The notes beneath the pieces were generated by a model. That model was not told the origin of the DNA, did not search any database, and saw nothing but the letters and a program-made list of their open reading frames with translations. From a virus (Duplodnaviria; Caudoviricetes), in the IMG/VR virus record IMGVR_UViG_3300025168_010295, positions 1 to 52,436 of that record: DNA of 52,436 bases. One strand, 5' to 3'. Within the stretch, counting starts at the first letter, position 1; every line of letters begins with the position of its first letter. The position numbers and the translations under genes are program-made. Positions 1,399 to 50,645 of this stretch are shown piece by piece.

Positions 1399-2955
1399 AT
1401 GTCAGACGCTATAGTTAAAAACCTTAACTTTGGTAGCGAAGCCCGCACCAATGTATTTAAAGGTATTGATAAATTGACACAAGCTGTTAGCTCCACACTC
1501 GGGGCTAGCGGCAAATGTGTCATACTGGAAGATAACACCGGAAATCCAGTAATCACAAAAGACGGTGTTACAGTTGCAAACTCTATTATATTAAGAGACC
1601 CAGTAGAAAACATGGGTGCTACGCTTTTAAAGGAAGCTGCTAGAAAAACCGTTCAAGAAGCTGGCGATGGAACAACAACGGCTACGGTACTAGCGCACTC
1701 AATCTTAACAGAGGCTTACGAAATACTAGACATTCAAGGTTCTAGAAAAATGAAAGATGGTATAACATCTGCTGTCGATAAGGTTGTAAAATACCTAGAC
1801 AAAAACTCTGTTAAAGTTTCTGGGAATATAATAGATCAAGTAGCAACGATATCTACAAACAATGATACTAAGCTAGGTAAGATAATTGCTGATGCATTTA
1901 GAGGTGTAGATGAAACTGGTATTGTTACAATGGAGAGAACAGCCGAAAGCGATACTAAAGTAGAAATAGTAGATGGTGTTGAATATGATAAAGGCCTTAC
2001 GAATATGGCTTTTGTTACTAGCAAAACCTCTAAAACTGCTGAGCTTGAAAACCCTTTGATACTCCTTGTAGAATCACCAATTGAAAGTATTAGAAAAATA
2101 CAAAGCGTACTTGAGTATGTTATAAAAAATAACAAGGCGTTACTTATAGTTGCCGATTGCGAGCCAGCTGTTGTATCAGCTCTTGCAATGAACAAGAACA
2201 AAGGTAATATAAAAGTAAATATAATAAACGCACCTACGTACGGTATCAATAAAAAAGATATGCTATCAGATCTAGCTTTGCTAACTGGTGCTACAGTTAT
2301 AAACGAAGATCTTGGTGATGATGTAGATTTAATCACACCTGATATGCTAGGTACTTGTAAAAAAGTTATAACAAGCGAGATGGATACTATATTCCAAGTT
2401 AATCGCGATAACGAAGAAGTTGATAGTCTTGTTGAAGAAATTAAAAAAGAATTAGCTACAGCAAAAAATGCATTTGATAAAATCAAACTAGAAAAAAGAT
2501 TGTCTAGATTATCTGCAAAAGTTGCTATTGTAAAAGTTGGTGCAAACTCAGAGATTGAACTCAGTGAAAAAGCTGATAGAGTCGAAGATGCTATTTGCGC
2601 AACTAAAGCCGCGATAAAAGAAGGTATAGTATCTGGTGGTGGTATAGCGTTATTAAATGCGTCACTAGCAATAAAACCTAAAAACGAAAGCGAACAAGTT
2701 CTTTTAAAAGCCATACAAGCTCCGTTTAAAACTATATTGAAAAATGCTGGCATTAACGAATACGAGATGCCTAAGGTAAAAGGCAAAGGATTAGATGTGG
2801 TTACAGGAAATATGGTAAATATGATTAAGTCAGGTATTGTCGATCCTTTGCTAGTTACCAAGTCAGCGCTTAGAAACGCAGCTTCAGTAGCTACTACTAT
2901 TCTTTCAACCGATTGTGTAATCAATAATCTAAGGATAGATGAAAGCGATAGGTAA
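1399..2955 (+). CDS. groEL: Phage-encoded chaperonin GroEL (Cpn60)
   Basis: ITKDGVTVA, AGDGTTTATVLA, VKVGA, EDAICATKAAIKEGIVSGGG and GIVDP motifs; lacks the C-terminal GGM tail. Confidence 0.97.
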   Translation: MSDAIVKNLNFGSEARTNVFKGIDKLTQAVSSTLGASGKCVILEDNTGNPVITKDGVTVANSIILRDPVENMGATLLKEAARKTVQEAGDGTTTATVLAHSILTEAYEILDIQGSRKMKDGITSAVDKVVKYLDKNSVKVSGNIIDQVATISTNNDTKLGKIIADAFRGVDETGIVTMERTAESDTKVEIVDGVEYDKGLTNMAFVTSKTSKTAELENPLILLVESPIESIRKIQSVLEYVIKNNKALLIVADCEPAVVSALAMNKNKGNIKVNIINAPTYGINKKDMLSDLALLTGATVINEDLGDDVDLITPDMLGTCKKVITSEMDTIFQVNRDNEEVDSLVEEIKKELATAKNAFDKIKLEKRLSRLSAKVAIVKVGANSEIELSEKADRVEDAICATKAAIKEGIVSGGGIALLNASLAIKPKNESEQVLLKAIQAPFKTILKNAGINEYEMPKVKGKGLDVVTGNMVNMIKSGIVDPLLVTKSALRNAASVATTILSTDCVINNLRIDESDR

Positions 2956-5649: not shown

Positions 5650-5678
5650 AACAGAAAGGACTGTATAAACCTTAGCCA

Positions 5679-5712
5679 AACACTAACACTAACACTAACA
5701 CTAACACTAACA
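5679..5712 (+). repeat. Hexamer microsatellite (AACACT)5+AACA in the leader of the 5717 gene
   Basis: Perfect repeats ending 4 nt before the ATG at 5717. Confidence 0.95.
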
Positions 5713-5716
5713 AAAA

Positions 5717-29473: not shown

Positions 29474-31087
29474 ATGAGTTATAGAAATCCACAGATAATC
29501 GTTGATCGATCAGCAGAAATATACGCGGGTCTTGCTAATGCAGGAACTAATTTTTTTAATTCTTATATGAAAGCTAGCAATGCTGTTAAAGATGCTACTG
29601 CTAAACGAAACGCAGGTATGCTTAAGGCTATTAACAAGTCTACAGAAAAGTATGAAAACAGAATTGAAAAAGGAATTGACGCGAATAAAATAGATGACCC
29701 TACTTTAATAGAGCAAGTACAAGCTGCAGCTGAAAAAATGTTAAATGGTTCTGACGGAAAAATAGGTGTTATTAGAAAAGATGCTATGCTAAACATGGGG
29801 TTAGTAAATGATCCGGCTCTTAGTAAACAATATAGAAAAGATATTAGAGAATATAAAGCTTGGCAATCAAGAGCTATACAAAACGCTGGTGGCTATGAAG
29901 CTCAAGTGGAAGATTACGATGCTCAAGTAAATTCGTCTACGCTTGGAACTACAAAGCAAATAGCTGGTCAAGGTACAGAAAGATTTATAAACCTTACAGC
30001 GCTTCAAACTTTAAGACAAAGAGAAATTGAAGGTGTTGATGTGTCAAGAACAGTTACAAAAGATGGTGATATAATTATATCGGGTAAGATGGATATGGAT
30101 AGCGCTGCTTTTAAACAATATTTAGATGATGAACTTATAGAAGTAGATAAAAATACAGGTGAAATAAAAGGTTTAAATATTGATGTAAAAAATGGTACTG
30201 CTTCTTTTGAGTGGAGAAGCAATGCTAAAAATCCAGTTAAAAATTTACTTATAGATTTAATACCTACGTTTGATCAATCTAAAGCTTCTATTGCAGCTGG
30301 TATAGAAAATAAAGATGGTAAAGTAACAGAGTCTCTATACGTAGGAGGAGAAAAAGGAAGAAAAACTCAAACAATTTCAGCTGGAAAAGGTCGTGTGTAT
30401 GATGAAACAAAAATATATATTAATACTGATGTAGTAAAAGATAATGATGTTTTTAACAAACAAGCTACAGCTTTTGCAGAAGGCGTTAGAACATCGTCTA
30501 AAGATCAACAAATAGATATACTTAATAGAATTGGTGTACCTCTTGAAGATCAAGAAAAGTATTTAAATGATCCCGCTTCTCAAGCTGACATAATTACAGA
30601 AGCATTAATTAATGATAACATAAAAAGACTTACTGGTTCACCTGATGTTAAAAAAGATGGTGATAAATTTTATATAACTGAATACAGCAAAGATAGAGCT
30701 AAACCTAAACCAGGAGCTACAGAAATAAAAGATGCTAAAGATTTAAAAGACGCTAAAACAAGATTAGATATTGTAGATACTCTTCTTGAAGTAGAAGACG
30801 CTATACCTGTGTTACCAGATGTTTTTCCAACAAGTTGGTTTAATTCTAATGAAGGTGAAGTAGCAAAACAAAGTATAATTGATATTGTAGAAAGAAGCGG
30901 TGGAAATATTATTGGAGACGTGATAGACGATGGCTCACGAGGTTTCAAAATCAAAGTAGACTACGACGGTAGAAAAAGAACTTTGTCAACAAATGATTTT
31001 AGAAATAAAAATATATTAAAATCTAGACTTAAAGACGCTATAGGAGCAGGTGTTGAAAACATTTATGATGATATTAATATTGATTAA
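29474..31087 (+). CDS. Internal virion (ejection) protein
   Basis: 537 aa between the pilot-like gene and the giant gene; assignment is positional. Confidence 0.6.
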   Translation: MSYRNPQIIVDRSAEIYAGLANAGTNFFNSYMKASNAVKDATAKRNAGMLKAINKSTEKYENRIEKGIDANKIDDPTLIEQVQAAAEKMLNGSDGKIGVIRKDAMLNMGLVNDPALSKQYRKDIREYKAWQSRAIQNAGGYEAQVEDYDAQVNSSTLGTTKQIAGQGTERFINLTALQTLRQREIEGVDVSRTVTKDGDIIISGKMDMDSAAFKQYLDDELIEVDKNTGEIKGLNIDVKNGTASFEWRSNAKNPVKNLLIDLIPTFDQSKASIAAGIENKDGKVTESLYVGGEKGRKTQTISAGKGRVYDETKIYINTDVVKDNDVFNKQATAFAEGVRTSSKDQQIDILNRIGVPLEDQEKYLNDPASQADIITEALINDNIKRLTGSPDVKKDGDKFYITEYSKDRAKPKPGATEIKDAKDLKDAKTRLDIVDTLLEVEDAIPVLPDVFPTSWFNSNEGEVAKQSIIDIVERSGGNIIGDVIDDGSRGFKIKVDYDGRKRTLSTNDFRNKNILKSRLKDAIGAGVENIYDDINID

Positions 31088-31098
31088 AATTAAATATA

Positions 31099-34000
31099 AT
31101 GGCTAGAAATAAAGAGCAAGTTGATCAATTAAAAAAATTAGTAGATCAATTAAGATCTGAAAATTTATCTACAGACGAAATACAAGCTAAGGTTGATGAA
31201 CAAAAAGCTTTGTTTGATGCTGAGCAAACAACTACTGTAGAAGTTACAGACGAAATACAAACTGACTCTACAGAGGGAAAGACAAACGATGTTGCAACAG
31301 TGGATGCGGCTGTGACATCGGAACCGGACACAGCATCCGAGAGTACGGAATCAGAGCCGGACGATATTTTATCGGGATTAGAAAAAATTAAAGACGTACG
31401 TGAAATAGATAAACGTATTGATAAAATAACATCTACTAAAGCCACTAAGTTTTTTGAAGCAGGAGAAATAAGTCCTTTAGATTCTCCAAAACGGATAGCT
31501 CAATATAAAGAATTAATCAATAGAAGAAACAATATAATAGGTGACGCTTATAAACTAGGTCAAACTCAGACTTACCAGCAAAAAGACTTTGATCCTATGA
31601 GTGCTGCTGAAATACAAACTGAAAGAGAGGGAGCTCCAGAAGGAGGAGTTAAACTAGCTTACGTTCCTTTTACTGTAGACGGTGAAGTTGTCGGTACTAC
31701 TATGGAGCCAGTTGGATTACAAGAGGTAGTAGTAACAGCTGAACAATATAAAGAGCGTGAAAGACAAGTACAAAGTGAAGCTTATATTAATTTTCTAGAA
31801 CAATCTGGTTTATCAACAGAACCACTATCTCGAGAAAAGTTTGAAGCTGAAAAAGAAAAAGAAGGTAATATAACAGAAATAAAAACTATGCCTTATAGAG
31901 GTTTAGATTTACTTCAATCTTTTGAAAACATAGGAGCTTCTTTATCTGGGCTTCAACAAACAACACAAGAAAAAGAAGATTTTAAAAATCAATATGAAGA
32001 TTATCTTTCTTTAATGAAAGACGAAAAAGTTAGTTTAGAGCGAGAAGTTCCTGGACTTTTATCTAGCACTGGTGCTGTAATTTCCAATACGCTTTTACAA
32101 ATTGGAGGTACTGATGATAGAGCTCTTTTAAATTTAGCTTATCTTACAAATTCTATATCTTCTGATACTTATAGAAATATATTTGGTGTAAATCTTGGTG
32201 ATAAACTAAAAGAACAGGCTGTTAAAGGACTTGGTGTTATAGATACTAAAATAAATTATTTAAATTCATTAACAGGTGATGTTGCGCAGTTTACAGATAT
32301 ACCAGATGTTGAAGGTGTAAAAAAAGTAACTTCAGGTTTAGCCGCTACTTTAAATGCTGTATCTAGTTTTGGCGCTACAGTAGCTACAGCTATACCAACT
32401 AGTGGCTACTCTATATATAGCGATATGATTGCTAATAATATTAAATCTTATAATGATGCTAAAGCTCAAAGATTTGGTATTGACGTTGTTGAACTTGCTA
32501 AACGCGGAGAAACAGAAATTGTAATACCTGCTACGTTAGGAAGTATAGGTGCTCAATTAGAAAAACTTGGTATAAAAGGAGTTGGAAGAGCTATAAGTAA
32601 AATGTCTCCAGGCGCTATGCAAACTGTTTTTGCTTTATTTAATTCAGGTACAACAGAAAGCGTTACTGAATGGTCACAAAATCAACTTGAAACATACAAT
32701 GAAGCTTTAGGAAAAGGTCTTACAAATAGCGAGGCTATTGACCTTGTTGTTAAAGAAATGACTTCTAAACAAAGTATAGAAAGCGCTTTGCAAGGATTTG
32801 CTGGAGGTGGTGGTGCAATGCTTAGTTCTAGTTTAATAAAATCAGCTAGCAGTTTACGCACTCCTTCTGAAAACAAAAGAGTATCTAATCTTATAAACAA
32901 ACTAAACGAATTAGAAAATAGTAAGTATAGAAAAAATTTAAACGCTGATGATATTGCTCAAATAAACACAGCTCAAGAACAAATAAGAGTTGATCTAAGA
33001 GATATTGTATTAAGTAATAACGAATTAACAACAACTTTAACACCAGCACAAATTCAACAAGTAGATATAGCCTCTGATTATTTAACTTCTTCTACTAGTA
33101 GAATAAACGAAATAGAAGCTAGTGATAAATACAGCGAGCAAGACAAAGAAAATATTATAGCTAGTATAAATCAAAAAAGAAAAATAGCTAGCGATGTAAT
33201 ATATGATATACGTAACGAAGCAGAAAAATTAGAAGCACAAGTATTTACTATAAAAGATTTATCTAAGTTTGTTAAAGGTGTTAAAGTAGAGGAAGCTAAA
33301 GATGATGCTGAAGCTTTAAAATTTGTTGATGAAAATAATTTAGAAATAAAAGCTTCTACGGAGCAAGGCTATATACTACAAAATCCTGAAACAGGTGAGC
33401 AGACGATAGTTATAAATAAAGAGACCGCTCAAAACCAACAAGCTGTAAACGTAGCCGCTCATGAATTTTTACATGCTATATTATATTCTACAATAAAAAA
33501 TAATCCTAAGGCAGCTACAAATCTTGGTAAATCTCTAATGGCTGAGTTAAATAAAATAGACATAGACCAAATAGAAGATAGTGACTTTAAAAAACGTATG
33601 AAGCAATATGCTGAAAAACCTATTGACCAACAAATGGAAGAGGCTATTACGTTGTTTTCTGATGCTTTAGTTACAGGGGATATAAATTTTAAAGAAAATA
33701 TAGCTACTAGAATAGGTGATAGATTTCGTAGACTTGCTCAAAAGTTTGGTGTTAAAATAAAATTTAACAATGGTAGAGATGTATATAACTTTGTAAAAGA
33801 TTATAACAAAAGTATTGAAAAAGGTGAATTATCTATAGCTCAAGTACGGGCAGCCGCTGAAGGTGTTGAAGGTGAATTAGTTACACCAGCTGAACAACAA
33901 GCTGATGAGCAAATAATTAAAGAATCAAGATCTGAAGAAGCTTCTAATCGTGTTCAAGAAATATACGATGAGCAAGGTGAAGCTGGAACTTTTGAAATTA

Positions 34001-37000
34001 TAGAACAGTTTAAACCTATTACAAGTAGAATAGTAGAGCGTAGAAGTGAAGCGCCTAGCTTTGATCGTCAATTACTTACAGACGAAATAGAAACTGGTCG
34101 GCGTGGTATTATAGATCTTATTAAAGAATATAATCCAGAATCAGGTGTACCGCTAGCGGCTTATATAAATAAGTTTCTACCAGCTCGAGCAATTGAAGCA
34201 TCGAAAAGAGTTCTTGGTGAAGAGTTTACAGAAGATGTCACTGAAGTAAGAGGTGTTGCGGCTGAAGAAGTTGTGACTGAAACTGCTATTAAACCAGAGG
34301 CAAAAGCTATTGATCCGTTTAGGATTATGCCTAATGTAAGAGAAAATGCGGTAACAGAAGTACAAGAAAGCATTGCAGATAAAGACGTAGACGTTACTAC
34401 GGTTACATATAAGGAGCTTAAAGATGTTGCACCATACCAAACAGTGGCAGACTTTTTTAACATACCTGTAAGCAGAATAAAAAATCCTAAAGATAATTTG
34501 CGTAAGTCAGATGACGTAGCAAATATACAGCGTTGGATATTAAAAAACGAACCTACATTAAAGAATTTATTTACTGAAGCTAACAGAGATGTAATTGAAG
34601 TAACTGAAGGTAATAGAGTTATACGTCAAGGTGGTGAACCCACTGCTATACCTAGAAATCTACTAAATAAGTTCTATACTAAAGGTGATCGTGTTGGTAA
34701 TAACTTTCAATGGAAACTTAAGCCTTACGATCGTACAGCTTTCTTAGAAGCTGTAGGTATTAAAGACGGTAAGGTTGATCCTAACTTTACACCACGTGCT
34801 GCAGAAGCTCAAACTATTAAAGGTATACTAGATATGTATACTAGAAACTTAGGCAACGTAGCTGCAAGAGATATTATAGAAGGTCGCGAAGATATTGCAC
34901 CCGCTGAAAGAGCTAGAGTACAAGCTGAGGTTGCCAAAGGCAAGCCAAGAATAATGCTTAGTCGATCACAAGAAAACGCTTTTATATATTCACCGACATC
35001 TGAAAATGATTTTGCTCAAGATATAAAAGGTTATTCTGAGATAGTAAAAGAAGCTCGTCAAACACCTATAAACATGCAAACTTTAGTTGGTGTAAACAAA
35101 TTTTTAAATAATTCTGTATCTTCAAGGTTAGTTAGTAAATTACCAAAAGAACTTTGGTTAAGTCTTACGGGTTCAACTGAAAGTGCTTTAACAGAACAAA
35201 CAAAAAAAGAATTAAAAGATCTTGGTATACAAGGTAAACCTTTTACAGTAGGTGAAACTACTTTAAGAAAATTGACTGGTAATTTTCCTTTTTTAAATAA
35301 AGGTGAAGCGGAAGCTTGGATAGCTAAGCAAGAAGCTAATGGAATAATTTTTCCAGAAGCTAGTAATAATATAAAAGCTTTATATAAAAGATTTAATTAT
35401 AAAGCTAAAAAAAATAATTTAGAAAAATTACTAAAAGATCCTAAATTTATTGCTGAACAAAATGCTTCTCTTGAAGGTTTAAAAGAAATATGGTTAATTA
35501 TTCAAAAAGAAATTTCAAAAAATCCTACAGTTATTATACCACTTGCAGCTGCTATATTTTCATCAACTAGCGCTTATCAAGGTACTACAATGCGCGTGGC
35601 AGCTCCTGTTAGGTTTTTTGAAAAAGGTTATAGAGATAATCCATTTGTAGAAGAACACACGTTACCAGCTAGTAGTTTAGCTAAAAAATTATTAGTTGAA
35701 GCTATTAATGGCAATATAAACAAAGTATGGCCTGATGTAACTAGAAATTTTCAACAAGGTGCTTTACTAGAAACTTCTGATAAAAAATTAAAAGGATATG
35801 GACCTGGAGAGTTTAGGTTTGATTATACTTCTGTAACTCCAGATGGGTGGAGAATAACAGATAATGTTTGGGCCAGATACTTTAATACAAATGTTGCTGA
35901 AAACCGTTTTGGTATAGATACAAACAATATAATAACAGAAGCTGGTTTAAGTATATTTGATTTGTACGGTGTAAATGCTTCTGGAAATATAGTATCAAAC
36001 GTTTTTAATTTAACACAACAAAAAGCAGCTCAAGTAAATAACAATAAAGTTCCTAAAAACTTTAGGGTTATGGCTAGCAAGTCTATGCCAAATGTTTTAG
36101 AAAACATGTCTAATCTAGACGCTGACGCTAAGCAAGCTAATAAAGAGTTTTACGATAGTGTTGATCTTAATAAAGAGTTTAACGATATACTAGAAGTTAA
36201 AACAGGTATTGCATCTGAGAAAAGATACAAGCGTGTTAAAGCAGAAGTAGTTGGAGCTAACAAAGGTAGGTTCCAGTTTTTTATACCTCCGTCAGCTGAA
36301 GACTTTACAGGTTTGTTATACTCAACACTTACTAAAGGTAAACTTGGTGATGCTCAAATGGCTTGGTACAAAAAAAACTTGCTAGATCCGTATGGTAAAG
36401 CAATGAACGAATTATCATCAGCTCGTATAGCTATGATGAACGATTATAAAGCTTTGAAAAAAGAGCTTAAGCTTGTACCAAAAGATTTACGTAAGAAAGT
36501 TCCAGGCGAACCGTTTACTCAAGAGCAAGCTGTAAGAGTTTATATATGGCAGAAGCAAGGTATGTCTGTTCCAGGTATAAGTGAAACTGATATGCAAGAC
36601 TTATCTGATTTTGTAGAAGGTAAAGAAGATTTAAAAACTTTTGCAGATCAACTAATGTATATACAAAAAGGTGATCAATACGCTGGACCTAAAGAAGGTT
36701 GGCCAGCTGGTACGATTACAACTGATATGCTTGAAGGTCTTAACACTATTAAGCGAGCTAAAGCTTTAGAACAATGGCAGACTAATGCAGATGAAATATT
36801 CAGCGAAGAAAATCTAAACAAACTAGAAGCCGCGTATGGTAAACCATATCGCTTAGCTATGGAGAATATGCTACAGCGTATGAAGTCTGGTCGTAACAGA
36901 AACTTCCAAGGCGATACGCTTACAGGTAGATTTACTGACTGGGTTACAGGTAGTATTGGTACTATAATGTTCTTCAACACAAGATCAGCATTGCTACAAA

Positions 37001-38172
37001 CTATATCTAGTATTAACTTTGTTAACTTCACTGATAACAATATACTAGCTGCAGGTAAAGCTTTTGCAAACCAGAAACAATTTTGGTCTGACTTTATGAC
37101 GCTTATGAACTCTGACTTCTTAAAAGAACGTCGTGGTGGTTTACGTATCAACGTAAGTGAAGCTGATATTGCAGACATGGCTAAAAAAGGTGGAGCTAAA
37201 GGTGTTATAAATAAACTACTTGAGTTTGGTTTTACGCCTACACAAATAGCAGATAGCTTTGCTATAGCATCAGGTGGCTCAGCGTTTTATCGTAATCGTA
37301 TTAAGACTTATAAAAAACAAGGTATGACAGATGCTGAAGCTGAAGCTCAAGCGTTTGTAGACTTTAGAGAGACAGCGGAAGAGTCTCAGCAGTCGTCAAG
37401 ACCTGATAGAATATCTATGCAACAAGCAGGTCCATTAGGACGTCTTGTATTAGCTTTTGCTAACACACCAGCTCAGTATGCTAGACTTATAAAGAAAGCG
37501 GCTAGCGATCTTAAGAATGGTCGAGGTGATGCTAAGACTAATATAAGTAAGATTATATACTACGGTGTAGCACAGAACTTATTGTTTAACGCGCTGCAAC
37601 AAGCTTTGTTTGCGTTTGCATTTGATGATGACGAAGAAGATACAGAAGAGCAGCAGAAAAAATATGTTGGTATAGCCAACGGTATGATGGATTCATTGCT
37701 AAGAGGTATGGGAATTGGCGGTGCTGTAGTTTCAGTAGGTAAAAACTCTATCATACGTATTATAAACGAGATGGAAAAGAAACAGCCTAAGCTTGAAAAA
37801 GTAGGTTATGAAATTACTAAACTATCTCCACCTATATCTGCTAAGCTATCACGTATAAATCAAGCTGCAAGATCTTATCAATGGGATAAAAAAGATATGA
37901 TGGAAAAAGGTTGGAGCTTAGATAACCCAGCTTACTTAGCAAGCGCTAATGTTATAGCAGCGCTTACCAACATACCACTTGACAGAGCTGTAAAGAAAAC
38001 TAACAACGTAGTACAAGCTACCTCACAAGATCTAGAAACTTGGGAACGCTTAGCTTTACTAGGTGGTTGGCAAGACTGGGAAATCGGTATTGACGAAGAA
38101 AAACCTAGTAACAAACCACAGCCTAGAAAAACAAAATCAAGAACTAAAAAACGTAAAACTAGAAAAAGATAA
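31099..38172 (+). CDS. Giant (2357 aa) internal virion/polyvalent protein with zincin motif, sigma-70-like module and EHxxP nuclease-like motif
   Basis: Last of three ejection-type genes; HEFLH at aa 788, sigma region-2-like at aa ~965-1037, HTH at ~1113, EHTLP at ~1519. Confidence 0.8.
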   Translation: MARNKEQVDQLKKLVDQLRSENLSTDEIQAKVDEQKALFDAEQTTTVEVTDEIQTDSTEGKTNDVATVDAAVTSEPDTASESTESEPDDILSGLEKIKDVREIDKRIDKITSTKATKFFEAGEISPLDSPKRIAQYKELINRRNNIIGDAYKLGQTQTYQQKDFDPMSAAEIQTEREGAPEGGVKLAYVPFTVDGEVVGTTMEPVGLQEVVVTAEQYKERERQVQSEAYINFLEQSGLSTEPLSREKFEAEKEKEGNITEIKTMPYRGLDLLQSFENIGASLSGLQQTTQEKEDFKNQYEDYLSLMKDEKVSLEREVPGLLSSTGAVISNTLLQIGGTDDRALLNLAYLTNSISSDTYRNIFGVNLGDKLKEQAVKGLGVIDTKINYLNSLTGDVAQFTDIPDVEGVKKVTSGLAATLNAVSSFGATVATAIPTSGYSIYSDMIANNIKSYNDAKAQRFGIDVVELAKRGETEIVIPATLGSIGAQLEKLGIKGVGRAISKMSPGAMQTVFALFNSGTTESVTEWSQNQLETYNEALGKGLTNSEAIDLVVKEMTSKQSIESALQGFAGGGGAMLSSSLIKSASSLRTPSENKRVSNLINKLNELENSKYRKNLNADDIAQINTAQEQIRVDLRDIVLSNNELTTTLTPAQIQQVDIASDYLTSSTSRINEIEASDKYSEQDKENIIASINQKRKIASDVIYDIRNEAEKLEAQVFTIKDLSKFVKGVKVEEAKDDAEALKFVDENNLEIKASTEQGYILQNPETGEQTIVINKETAQNQQAVNVAAHEFLHAILYSTIKNNPKAATNLGKSLMAELNKIDIDQIEDSDFKKRMKQYAEKPIDQQMEEAITLFSDALVTGDINFKENIATRIGDRFRRLAQKFGVKIKFNNGRDVYNFVKDYNKSIEKGELSIAQVRAAAEGVEGELVTPAEQQADEQIIKESRSEEASNRVQEIYDEQGEAGTFEIIEQFKPITSRIVERRSEAPSFDRQLLTDEIETGRRGIIDLIKEYNPESGVPLAAYINKFLPARAIEASKRVLGEEFTEDVTEVRGVAAEEVVTETAIKPEAKAIDPFRIMPNVRENAVTEVQESIADKDVDVTTVTYKELKDVAPYQTVADFFNIPVSRIKNPKDNLRKSDDVANIQRWILKNEPTLKNLFTEANRDVIEVTEGNRVIRQGGEPTAIPRNLLNKFYTKGDRVGNNFQWKLKPYDRTAFLEAVGIKDGKVDPNFTPRAAEAQTIKGILDMYTRNLGNVAARDIIEGREDIAPAERARVQAEVAKGKPRIMLSRSQENAFIYSPTSENDFAQDIKGYSEIVKEARQTPINMQTLVGVNKFLNNSVSSRLVSKLPKELWLSLTGSTESALTEQTKKELKDLGIQGKPFTVGETTLRKLTGNFPFLNKGEAEAWIAKQEANGIIFPEASNNIKALYKRFNYKAKKNNLEKLLKDPKFIAEQNASLEGLKEIWLIIQKEISKNPTVIIPLAAAIFSSTSAYQGTTMRVAAPVRFFEKGYRDNPFVEEHTLPASSLAKKLLVEAINGNINKVWPDVTRNFQQGALLETSDKKLKGYGPGEFRFDYTSVTPDGWRITDNVWARYFNTNVAENRFGIDTNNIITEAGLSIFDLYGVNASGNIVSNVFNLTQQKAAQVNNNKVPKNFRVMASKSMPNVLENMSNLDADAKQANKEFYDSVDLNKEFNDILEVKTGIASEKRYKRVKAEVVGANKGRFQFFIPPSAEDFTGLLYSTLTKGKLGDAQMAWYKKNLLDPYGKAMNELSSARIAMMNDYKALKKELKLVPKDLRKKVPGEPFTQEQAVRVYIWQKQGMSVPGISETDMQDLSDFVEGKEDLKTFADQLMYIQKGDQYAGPKEGWPAGTITTDMLEGLNTIKRAKALEQWQTNADEIFSEENLNKLEAAYGKPYRLAMENMLQRMKSGRNRNFQGDTLTGRFTDWVTGSIGTIMFFNTRSALLQTISSINFVNFTDNNILAAGKAFANQKQFWSDFMTLMNSDFLKERRGGLRINVSEADIADMAKKGGAKGVINKLLEFGFTPTQIADSFAIASGGSAFYRNRIKTYKKQGMTDAEAEAQAFVDFRETAEESQQSSRPDRISMQQAGPLGRLVLAFANTPAQYARLIKKAASDLKNGRGDAKTNISKIIYYGVAQNLLFNALQQALFAFAFDDDEEDTEEQQKKYVGIANGMMDSLLRGMGIGGAVVSVGKNSIIRIINEMEKKQPKLEKVGYEITKLSPPISAKLSRINQAARSYQWDKKDMMEKGWSLDNPAYLASANVIAALTNIPLDRAVKKTNNVVQATSQDLETWERLALLGGWQDWEIGIDEEKPSNKPQPRKTKSRTKKRKTRKR

Positions 38173-39509: not shown

Positions 39510-39545
39510 GAAGGGGATCTCATCGCGAGGTCCCCTTCTTTTTTT
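39510..39545 (+). terminator. Rho-independent terminator at the convergence of the two arms
   Basis: GAAGGGGATCTC-ATCGC-GAGGTCCCCTTC 12-bp stem followed by T7. Confidence 0.9.
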
Positions 39546-49204: not shown

Positions 49205-49229
49205 AGGTATATTGGTATTTACTTATTAA

Positions 49230-49260
49230 TATAATTACACATAAAAATACAGTTTTACAA
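49230..49260 (-). promoter_or_regulatory. Putative phage-sigma promoter (TTGTAAAA-N14-GTAATTATA) upstream of the recombination/replication operon
   Basis: Same boxes and spacing as 988-1018; lies immediately downstream of the sigma gene. Confidence 0.55.
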
Positions 49261-49267
49261 TTATAAC

Positions 49268-50023
49268 TTACAGATAGTCAATCACTTGCGAATGATCAAC
49301 GCTATCAATTAATTTCTGTACGGCTTGCTTTTTTAGCTCACTTACACGCACGTAATTGCTTGTACCTTCTATGTTTAGTTTAGCTGCAATATCTTTAGCT
49401 TGATGCTTATCGCAGTCGAGTCCGTAGCTTAATCTGAGCACCTCATACTCTTTTTCATTTAGGTGCTTTTGAAGTAAGCCTTTGAGATAAATATTTAGTA
49501 GAGCTATATTATATGGCTCTGATTTATCTGCTATTTGATGTATCATCATTTCGCCTTCGTCATTTGCTGGTTGCGCATCTATAGATAAAAATATAGAATT
49601 AAAAAACATTGCAACCATTTTATGATCTTTAGGGTTTTTACGTATTTCGTTCATCTTATGCTCAGGTATGCGTATGTCGCCTCTGTGCATATCAATACGC
49701 CTACGTATAGCGCCTTTGATACGTTTGCTGAAGAAACTTTTTAAAGTCTTTTCTAAGTCATCAGAATCATCTAGCTTTTCCCAAAGTAGTTTGTCAACTG
49801 ATTTAGTAAGTGCTTCGCCACCTATTTGTATAAGATCGTTTATACTAAGCACACCTGATGCTTGTTGTGTGGTTGAAAACTTACGTGCTAGATTTTCTAC
49901 AAGTGGCATGAACTGTATTATAAGCTCAACGCGACTGTAGTCTTTAAACTCCTTATGTTCAGGCATAGAGGCTTTTAAATCTTCTTTGTACCTTATATAG
50001 TTCTGTACGTTATACTTTTTCAT
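49268..50023 (-). CDS. Phage sigma-70 family RNA polymerase sigma factor
   Basis: Region 2 FMPLVENLARKF...DLIQIG...RIKGAIRR, IRIPEH, region 4 LNEKEYEVLRLSYGLD...RVSELKKQAVQKL. Confidence 0.9.
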   Translation of the reverse strand: MKKYNVQNYIRYKEDLKASMPEHKEFKDYSRVELIIQFMPLVENLARKFSTTQQASGVLSINDLIQIGGEALTKSVDKLLWEKLDDSDDLEKTLKSFFSKRIKGAIRRRIDMHRGDIRIPEHKMNEIRKNPKDHKMVAMFFNSIFLSIDAQPANDEGEMMIHQIADKSEPYNIALLNIYLKGLLQKHLNEKEYEVLRLSYGLDCDKHQAKDIAAKLNIEGTSNYVRVSELKKQAVQKLIDSVDHSQVIDYL

Positions 50024-50645
50024 CTTCTTTTAGTTGCTGATTTAATAATTCTTTTTCTTTTTTAAGCTCATTACCTATATTACGATATATAGTTCTTGCC
50101 GAGCAATTAAAATACTTAGCAAGCTTATCTATAGTAATAAGATCTTGCATTTCATTTAGAATTAGCATAGCATCGTATATATCATCTTGTGTAACAGTCT
50201 TAGCTCTACCCATAATACTACCAACAATGTGTAGCTTTTCGGATGGTGTTAGCTGGCAAGTATCTTTAAAAATAATCTTACGCATTTTATTACGTGGAGG
50301 TTCTTCTAAATCATACATGCTTACATCATAGATAATATTTTTTAATAGTTGTTCTGAAACAGTAAATGTTACAAAACCATTTTTCTTGTTGCAAATGTTT
50401 GTAGCTACATATTCAAACTCATCTTGATCCATTGCAGGATTAAGATACCATATAACTAACAGGTGCCATTTTAAAGAACGATACGTTGTAATCTTAGCTT
50501 TAGTTCTAAACAGATCGTAGCACTGATGTGTACCATTATAGTACACAGTGCCCCAATCATGCAACTCATCAGGATAATCACTGATAGGATCTCGGCGGTA
50601 TATAATACGGTTGCTATCTAAAAATTTGGTATTTCGGTATGACAT
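50010..50645 (-). CDS. DNA-binding protein with C-terminal HTH (possible Rep/initiator)
   Basis: ITIDKLAKYFNCSARTIYRN helix-turn-helix. Confidence 0.7.
   Translation of the reverse strand: MSYRNTKFLDSNRIIYRRDPISDYPDELHDWGTVYYNGTHQCYDLFRTKAKITTYRSLKWHLLVIWYLNPAMDQDEFEYVATNICNKKNGFVTFTVSEQLLKNIIYDVSMYDLEEPPRNKMRKIIFKDTCQLTPSEKLHIVGSIMGRAKTVTQDDIYDAMLILNEMQDLITIDKLAKYFNCSARTIYRNIGNELKKEKELLNQQLKEDEKV

Follow-up and report, generated by a model that had tools for sequence, protein, structure and literature searches.

The stretch of DNA considered here, which we refer to as the window, is the whole 52,436-nucleotide (nt) IMG/VR record IMGVR_UViG_3300025168_010295 (positions 1 to 52,436), from a virus of the Caudoviricetes. 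The last large gene of its structural operon is a giant open reading frame (ORF) at 31099..38172 on the + strand, a single uninterrupted frame of 2357 amino acids (aa), and within the protein that it encodes we found a module at aa 945-1059 (33931..34275, + strand) that aligns with regions 2.1-2.3 of sigma-70 factors. In sigma factors, the sigma-2 domain docks on the beta-prime clamp helices of the RNA polymerase core and contacts the -10 element. The giant protein begins with a variable N-terminus, followed by an M78 zincin peptidase and then the sigma-2-like module. After an acidic linker come a domain with a helix-turn-helix (HTH)-like motif and a variable stretch, and the protein closes with a conserved C-terminal block and, at its very end, a basic tail. 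An earlier note, made from the letters of the DNA, had drawn attention to positions 33961-34510 on the + strand. These correspond to aa 955-1137 of the giant ORF, and their stop-free translation gives FEIIEQFKPITSRIVERR...GRRGIIDLIKEYNPESGVPLAAYINKFLPARAIEASKR, with YQTVADFFNIPVSRIKN about 75 aa later, so the strings and coordinates quoted in that note were found just as it gave them. On the opposite strand at 33961-34510 there is no ORF of 150 aa or more.

The reference sigma factors for the comparison were RpoD, RpoS, RpoH, FliA and RpoE of E. coli, taken from the annotated K-12 record and aligned. When the family profile of the module was aligned with these five sigmas using hhalign, the probability was 74-79%, with P values of 1.7e-5 to 2.7e-5 over 71-73 columns; the first family alignment had given a probability of 74% and an E value of 2.7e-5 over 73 columns. 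In the hhalign register, the pattern FKPI(T/V)xxIVxxR falls on region 2.1 and DEIETGxRGIxDLIxEYxPxSGVPLAAYIN falls on regions 2.2-2.3. A 32-sequence non-redundant alignment, trimmed to the part that resembles region 2, had an hhalign score of 38.5 (P 1.7e-5). As a control, we shuffled its columns 120 times, which gave a mean score of 13.0, a standard deviation (sd) of 2.1 and a maximum of 21.2, and the reversed profile scored 13.0, so that the observed score is about 12 sd above the shuffles. By eye, we had also taken the pattern ASxxVQxIYxxQG for sigma region 1.2; this was dropped, as hhalign did not place it on region 1.2 of RpoS.

Other resources also point to region 2. With the 115-aa core of the module as the query, 27 of the 30 nearest named clusters by ESM-Atlas features are Sigma70_r2 (0.96-0.97, 174 shared features) and the remaining three are viral 'sigma factor' clusters, while a longer query of 241 aa had a lead of only 0.81. 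The PHROG 1025 profile, 'RNA polymerase sigma factor', matches the segment of the window with an E value of 7.7e-4, residues 32-180 of the segment being co-linear with positions 56-197 of the 214 in the profile, and the same PHROG is weakly matched by 10 of the 19 family members that we searched. In NCBIfam, the sigma models matched most often by the 19 members were SigK (5), SigI (4) and FliA/WhiG (3), and four further sigma models were matched once each. One fragment belonging to the family carries the JGI name 'DNA-directed RNA polymerase specialized sigma subunit'. Based on these comparisons of sequences, we believe that aa ~945-1059 are very probably a true, although very remote, homologue of sigma-2 over regions 2.1-2.3, and we regard the module as a genuine sigma-2-like cargo domain, as far as sequence can tell, in the giant protein.

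Downstream of the module, aa 1060-1099 (34276..34395, + strand) form an acidic, poorly conserved linker whose length and sequence vary in alignments A1 and A3. The linker is followed by a conserved domain at aa 1100-1215 (34396..34743, + strand), in which conservation is at the level of patterns (in A3 and in a 45-sequence alignment) and which contains the HTH-like motif YQTVADFFNIPVSRIKN (aa 1113-1129, nt 34435-34485). When this downstream part was compared with sigma region 4 using hhalign, P values were 0.03-0.09 over 16-43 columns. The best local alignment of the C-terminal part puts YQTVADFFNIPVSRIKN on the region 4.2 HTH (P 0.086), and the region 3.1 HTH fits the stretch just as well. 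The 45-sequence alignment, which includes divergent variants, aligned with region 4 over 16 columns (P 0.03-0.06), with a score of 13.3 against a shuffle maximum of 12.5. The downstream segment of the window also weakly matches a PHROG 'DNA binding protein' (E 0.035). The downstream domain is much less conserved than the region-2 part, and it occurs without a detectable region-2 part in 10 of the 19 related records that it matches. From its sequence, aa 1100-1215 would seem to have a generic HTH-like likeness, and their assignment to sigma region 4 is not supported.

The only curated domain in the giant protein lies immediately N-terminal of the sigma-2-like module. It is an M78/IrrE-type zincin metallopeptidase domain at aa 748-888 (33340..33762, + strand), recognized by Pfam PF06114 and by the motif HEFLH, which a regular-expression search located at aa 788-792 (nt 33460-33474). 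On the piece from aa 620 to 960, PF06114 scores 30.0 bits (E 5.1e-7, cut-off 22), and on the whole protein it scores 23.4 bits. At the other end of the protein, aa 1669-2346 (36103..38136, + strand) form a conserved C-terminal block that is common to giant proteins with differing N-terminal and middle parts. No Pfam family matches this block at an E value of 0.5 or less, and its PHROG matches are weak (E 0.03-0.08). The block has the look of a constant part, for 'delivery or assembly', in a protein whose cargo is swapped. We considered transmembrane helices in the block and rejected them because no 19-aa window has a Kyte-Doolittle hydropathy above 1.4. The protein ends in a strongly basic tail, KPQPRKTKSRTKKRKTRKR (38113..38169, + strand, read from the translation), which may have a role in binding DNA.

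Relatives of the giant protein are numerous. With aa 930-1180 as the query, 972 proteins were retrieved in a word-indexed search; they range from 1296 to 4125 aa and are all unnamed metagenome proteins, many of them marine. An exhaustive HMMER search of 1.84 billion representatives found 302 representative clusters at 50% identity (E <=1e-3). In IMG/VR, 212 stretches encode relatives of the giant protein. Along the protein, 78 divergent homologues show two blocks of conservation, aa 750-1300, with a peak of 69-76% identity at aa 951-1050, and aa 1700-2350. The module is the most conserved 100 aa of the giant protein in this set, a figure that is biased toward it because the 78 homologues were retrieved through the module region. 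In alignment A4, whose sequences were chosen to be less than 80% identical over 290 aa, the mean column identity is 80% and 31 of the 115-117 columns are invariant. The equivalent of region 2.3, VPLAAYINKFLPARAIEAS, is as invariant as the equivalent of region 2.2. Region 2.3 of sigma factors contacts DNA, and the frozen state of its equivalent here hints at a conserved contact with nucleic acid and not at mere core binding.

The make-up of the giant protein differs among relatives. The C-terminal block is 86-88% identical in the related genomes G029 and G023 and 46-49% identical in G021 and G003. In G023 and G029, whose stand-alone sigmas are 96-97% identical to that of the window, the front and middle of the giant protein differ from those of the window. 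G021 has a very divergent peptidase-plus-module block (blastp E 6e-30), and intermediate versions of the module block are found in G004, G012 and G036. Several homologues have extra cargo domains, either Zeta-toxin/AAA kinase domains (PF06414, PF13671, PF07931) or LysM (PF01476), in P0071, P0087, P0091, P0115 and P0093-P0095. Judging from this domain content, the giant protein is a mosaic of the 'polyvalent' type, in which unrelated domains are combined and the content varies from relative to relative. Separately, we noted that in the place of the window's module the G021 giant protein has, at aa 690-960 (L263:2658-3470), a weak match to the NCBIfam model QatB (E 2e-5, 24.6 bits, far under the cut-off of 100); QatB is associated with the Qat anti-phage system. 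Two other candidates were discarded. A segment of the G023 giant protein that looked by eye like a cryptic sigma has no NCBIfam matches, and only three near-identical relatives of it are available, so no profile is possible. The 53 short matches that could have been stand-alone forms of the module are mostly fragments of short contigs, and the 10 that we inspected, including those on long contigs, are truncated or frameshifted pieces.

The genes upstream of the giant ORF match the PHROG families of large terminase, portal and virion structural proteins, and the giant gene closes the structural operon, with no further large gene after it in the + strand block. The same position is occupied by a gene for a 3859-aa protein in the uncultured Caudoviricetes genome MW202828.1 and by one for a 3694-aa protein, annotated 'structural protein', in Flavobacterium phage elemoA_7-9A. 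The view of the earlier note that the giant gene belongs with virion genes is supported by the PHROG matches and by synteny with giants annotated as structural proteins. A match to the giant protein of a cultured relative by blastp (E 0.42) was inspected and rejected as a copy of the module. The elemo phages are not covered in the paper on Baltic Flavobacterium phages (PMC7077304). When relatives of the large terminase (TerL) were collected, the 87 records came from phages of Flavobacterium (68), Cellulophaga (15), Tenacibaculum (2) and Maribacter (1), and from MW202828.1 (1). The phage is thus a marine podovirus related to phages of Flavobacteriia, and its hosts are probably marine Flavobacteriia, given the hosts of the TerL relatives.

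Beyond the structural operon, an intrinsic-terminator-like hairpin at 39510..39538 (+ strand), with a 12-pair stem that includes 7 G-C pairs followed by TTTTTTT, lies between the convergent + and - strand gene blocks. The - strand genes encode both ribonucleotide reductase subunits, MazG, a thymidylate-synthase-like protein, a primase/helicase, a PDDEXK nuclease, ERF, a sigma factor, an HTH protein and DNA ligase. We noted two further features on the + strand side of the window: a GroEL-like chaperonin at 1399-2955 (+ strand; Pfam Cpn60_TCP1, E 9.9e-56), with both GroEL and GroES also encoded by the cultured-type relatives, and five tandem CTAACA units (CTAACACTAACACTAACACTAACACTAACA) at 5650-5716, in an intergenic stretch between two + strand genes.

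The sigma factor on the - strand (49268..50023) is a stand-alone protein of 251 aa with regions 2 and 4. It matches PHROG 351 sigma with an E value of 3.2e-16, and in Pfam its region 4 (E 0.0038) and region 2 (E 0.016) matches are both below the cut-offs. Its family profile, which served as a control of the method, aligned with the E. coli sigmas in hhalign with a probability of 97.7% and an E value of 2.4e-12 over 192 columns, including region 4, in agreement with the earlier note, which had placed a separate sigma at these positions. That note had also seen a likeness between the module and this sigma. The register of the likeness is correct, but its significance is low, with an E value of 0.076 against the single protein and a P value of 0.018 against a 7-sequence family profile. 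The module is not a recent copy of the phage's own sigma. Next to the sigma gene and overlapping its start by 14 nt is the gene for a 211-aa protein (50010-50645, - strand) with a C-terminal match to HTH_11 (E 2.7e-5, 24.4 bits, cut-off 25), which may be a partner of the sigma or a second regulator. Downstream of the sigma gene and upstream of the ERF and PDDEXK genes is a 63-bp AT-rich non-coding gap (49205-49267) that could be an internal promoter.

The earlier note had found no DxDxD motif of a virion RNA polymerase in the giant protein, and our search agrees. By regular expression, the protein has no D[FY]DxD and a single DxDxD string, DKDVD at aa 1094 within the variable linker, and no polymerase family of Pfam or PHROGs matches it. 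Nor did we see a phage RNA polymerase among the genes of the 52-kb window, and transcription thus appears to rely on the host polymerase together with sigma-type factors.

The window is a partial, rotated copy of a relative, G001 (58,995 b, 92% complete), and about 7 kb between the two ends of the window are missing. In G001, this missing part contains small leftward ORFs and a 510-bp divergent intergenic region. We found a 34-bp candidate early-promoter motif, TTTACA-N5-AATAC-N9-TGGATAATA, in five copies in the early region of G001 (30760-33327, minus strand, within L131 = G001:26500-36500). All five copies point in the same direction as the small early genes, and three of them end 18-19 nt before an ATG. 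No copies were found with the reversed pattern as a control. At least 120 IMG/VR stretches contain the exact pattern, which is absent from the two cultured-type relatives. The window, which lacks the early region, has no copy. Of 43 records of at least 40 kb that bear the motif, 32 have the stand-alone sigma, as do 25 of the 27 near-complete ones (90% or more). The module was detected in 8 of the 43 (7 of the 27 near-complete) with the narrow A4 profile and in 19 of the 43 (13 of the 27) with the wide A3 profile, although these co-occurrences are confounded by shared ancestry and by divergent modules that go undetected. In the same region of G001, we also noted two intergenic stretches (L131 2201-2319 and 3786-4025, minus-strand orientation) that share GCGTGAAATGGT(C/T)AG ... 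CAGGTTCGATTCCTGCCACG, resembling the T-arm of a tRNA. ARAGORN found no tRNA genes in the early region, so tRNA genes were rejected, and the shared stretches may be a tRNA-like element or another structured RNA.

Based on these observations, our preferred reading, to which we assign a probability of roughly 40%, is that the module is a sigma-2-type docking or minimal-initiation module for the host RNA polymerase core and forms part of the cargo of a polyvalent protein that presumably is packaged and processes itself. The position of the gene, synteny and the domain architecture suggest that the giant protein would be packaged and would leave the capsid with the DNA. The adjoining M78 peptidase may then cut modules free, by analogy with what has been proposed for polyvalent proteins, and the sigma-2-like module would dock on the core of the host RNA polymerase and, as a minimal sigma, help it to begin transcribing the genome that is entering. 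In this it would resemble T4 gp55, a factor with little beyond a sigma-2 domain. A more specific version of this reading, in which a capsid-borne polyprotein processes itself and frees the sigma-2-type module on entry, and the host core then reads early promoters that are closed to the unusual Bacteroidetes housekeeping sigma, with the extended -10-like TGGATAATA motif as one candidate, strikes us as improbable.

A number of results weigh against the preferred reading. The NCBIfam sigma matches are weak (E 0.0036-0.18), none being significant or above the curated cut-offs, and they are mixed with non-sigma singletons such as ClpS (E 2.7e-4); none of six divergent versions of the module matches a sigma in NCBIfam. 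Pfam Sigma70_r2 (PF04542) matches none of the 19 members and not the segment of the window, and a search of the window's own record with this model also found nothing, although that search is insensitive, as it missed the stand-alone sigma too. No sigma was found among the sequences of the PDB by phmmer and HMMER profiles, or among the best 150 of the 302 HMMER matches in the 1.84 billion representatives, all of which belong to the giant-protein family. The earlier note had extended the sigma-70 likeness through regions 2.1-2.4. For 2.1-2.3 the likeness stands in the register that it proposed, as the hhalign P value of 1.7e-5, the shuffles and ESM-Atlas indicate, but region 2.4 was not aligned in hhalign. 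In the same alignment, the position that matches E. coli W433 is a Lys in the module, and the module helix corresponding to region 2.3/2.4 contains an invariant Pro. Nor did a second sigma domain emerge, since the sigma families of PHROGs and Pfam match none of 10 C-terminal segments.

The distribution of the module among relatives also counts against this reading. In G023 the stand-alone sigma is 97% and the C-terminal block 88% identical, and the early motif is present in five exact copies, yet nothing in this genome matches the module profile; G029 has only a very divergent peptidase-plus-module block (blastp E 1e-7, ~25% identity) that includes KRGLLGLLQKYDPARNESIMGYLN. Conservation, which the earlier note had proposed as a check, holds for the family as a whole, where the module is the most conserved stretch and is found in 302 clusters, but does not extend to a recognizable copy in G023, and in G029 the copy is very divergent. 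Given that G023 has the sigma and the motif with no recognizable module, the module looks like exchangeable cargo and not like an obligatory step in a cascade. The early motif tracks the lineage and the stand-alone sigma at least as well as it tracks the module, and together with G023 this co-occurrence does not support early promoters specific to the module. The case for packaging is indirect, in that the module was not found in the syntenic giants of MW202828.1 and elemoA_7-9A. Finally, blastn and tblastn searches of INPHARED with the giant gene, the protein and the segment found no match, in a set that may leave out records near the window.

Several other explanations compete with a minimal docking module. 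The hypothesis of an injected-sigma cascade, advanced in the earlier note, goes furthest: a complete sigma with both region 2 and region 4 would be injected, would direct the host RNA polymerase to early promoters and would be the obligatory first step before the stand-alone sigma acts. In its favor, the likeness to region 2 is real, the PHROG sigma profile runs co-linearly (56-197 of 214) across both the region-2-like part and the HTH motif, and YQTVADFFNIPVSRIKN falls on the 4.2 HTH in the best local alignment by hhalign. The five directional copies of the motif in the early region of G001 also fit, and the motif is unlike the Bacteroidetes sigma-A consensus (TTG / TAnnTTTG), so another factor may be needed at time zero. 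We nevertheless consider a two-domain sigma unlikely. The region 4.2 HTH that the earlier note saw about 75 aa downstream did not hold up, with P values of 0.03-0.09, an equal fit to the region 3.1 HTH and no sigma-family match in the 10 segments, and 10 of 19 records have the C-terminal domain with no detectable region-2 part. The first step of a two-sigma cascade also finds no backing in the genomes, as the motif follows the stand-alone sigma (25/27) over the module (7/27 or 13/27), G023 has motif and sigma with no recognizable module, and the window itself is without the motif. Alternatively, the module could be a decoy that occupies the sigma site on the beta-prime clamp helices and either shuts off host transcription or keeps the polymerase where the DNA enters. 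In favor of a decoy, the sigma likeness is clearest in the core-binding region 2.1-2.2, there is no second sigma domain that we could detect, the module is exchangeable among close relatives, as expected of cargo for host takeover, and delivered modifiers or hijackers of RNA polymerase such as T4 Alt have been described (PMC5512222, PMC7824862). However, the region 2.3 equivalent VPLAAYINKFLPARAIEAS would be superfluous in a decoy that only binds the core, and it is as invariant as the 2.2 equivalent, which leaves a decoy rather doubtful in our estimation.

A function away from the polymerase is a further alternative that we judge somewhat unlikely: the module would keep a sigma-2-like fold, would have lost its RNA polymerase role and would serve as nucleic-acid-binding or anti-defence cargo, perhaps protecting the entering DNA end by the logic of ArdC-type proteins (a DNA-binding domain with a zincin). 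The module does adjoin an M78/zincin peptidase, and the zincins of polyvalent proteins are mostly paired with DNA-binding domains that protect incoming DNA (PMC5512222). The weak match of the downstream segment to a PHROG 'DNA binding protein' (E 0.035) and the basic C-terminal tail are consistent with such a role, as are the rapid divergence of the module and its replacement between close relatives, typical of cargo involved in conflict. On the other hand, modules of the A4 type are nearly frozen (80% mean column identity), which better fits a conserved partner such as RNA polymerase, and the module has no similarity to ArdC-N or to any Pfam DNA-binding family. We think it very unlikely that the giant protein is not delivered at all and that the module acts late in the producing cell or is merely structural. 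Packaging of this family is deduced from position and synteny, the position of the gene implies expression with the late structural operon, and we saw neither a hydrophobic segment nor a lytic domain of the kind that ejection proteins typically have; yet the phage already has a separate sigma for use inside the cell, the syntenic giants of cultured relatives are annotated as structural proteins, and the multidomain architecture with a zincin matches proteins that are predicted to travel with the DNA. That a helical segment resembles sigma merely by chance or through its composition, as the blank results of the curated models and HMMER searches might be taken to mean, is extremely improbable, since four methods converge on region 2 in one register and the score is about 12 sd above the shuffles, with the reversed profile at the shuffle mean.

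Two routes are known by which phages have their first genes transcribed: early promoters that are read by the host holoenzyme, or an injected RNA polymerase, as in N4, crAss-like phages and some jumbo phages. If the preferred reading is true, a pre-made sigma-type domain delivered in a virion protein would be a third route for transcription at time zero, and it would explain what the best-conserved segment of this large giant-protein family does. The idea is tractable, as the module is only ~115 aa long, the beta-prime clamp helices offer a well-defined presumed partner and the phage has relatives that infect culturable Flavobacteriia. Even if the module has another function, a sigma-2 fold as exchangeable cargo would be a new phage domain architecture. 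In the titles, abstracts and passages of the literature that we searched, we found no description of a packaged or injected sigma or of a sigma domain inside a virion or polyvalent protein. Sigma-like factors of phages and delivered hijackers of transcription are each known, and it is their apparent combination in one giant protein that is not. The giant protein is probably carried in the virus particle, and in this way the phage may deliver a ready-made handle on the transcription machine of its host.

With polyvalent proteins, the window's protein shares a large multidomain build, a zincin-like metallopeptidase, cargo that varies among relatives, a late or structural context and predicted delivery. 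It differs in that no Pfam family matched in it is a polyvalent-protein-associated domain, a kind for which Pfam does have families. In the polyvalent proteins, zincin peptidases are described as a hub, and it has been proposed that their self-cleavage releases the neighboring domains and that phage polyvalent proteins serve in establishing transcription (Iyer et al. 2017, PMC5512222). The word 'sigma' does not occur in the main text of that paper, and a module of this kind may stand under another name in its supplements. N4 gp50 and gp66 of the crAss-like phage phi14:2 are virion RNA polymerases in giant packaged proteins (10.1101/2020.03.07.982082; PMC5512222). As in those phages, the giant protein of the window is encoded with structural genes and is presumed to be delivered with the DNA for early transcription before any phage expression; in contrast to them, it has no D[FY]DxD and no polymerase family match and would borrow the host core polymerase. 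T4 Alt is likewise a pre-made protein that is delivered with the DNA and retargets the host RNA polymerase (PMC5512222, PMC7824862), but Alt is an ADP-ribosyltransferase, whereas the module has no catalytic signature and would act by binding.

The stand-alone sigmas of phages have the same superfamily signal in regions 2.1-2.2, but the phage's own sigma aligns over 192 columns, including region 4, and the module over 71-73. Among free phage factors, gp55 of T4 is a minimal late sigma of ~185 aa that is essentially only a sigma-2-like domain and is made during infection. In contrast to gp55, the module of the window forms aa 945-1059 of a far larger protein (2357 aa), which is encoded in the structural operon, and has a peptidase as its neighbor; we identified no gp33-like or sliding-clamp partner for the module. 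What the two have in common is a divergent phage domain of the sigma-2 type that standard models barely detect, with no convincing sigma-4, and by analogy with gp55 the module would use the beta-prime clamp helices as its docking site and recognize a -10-like element in the DNA.

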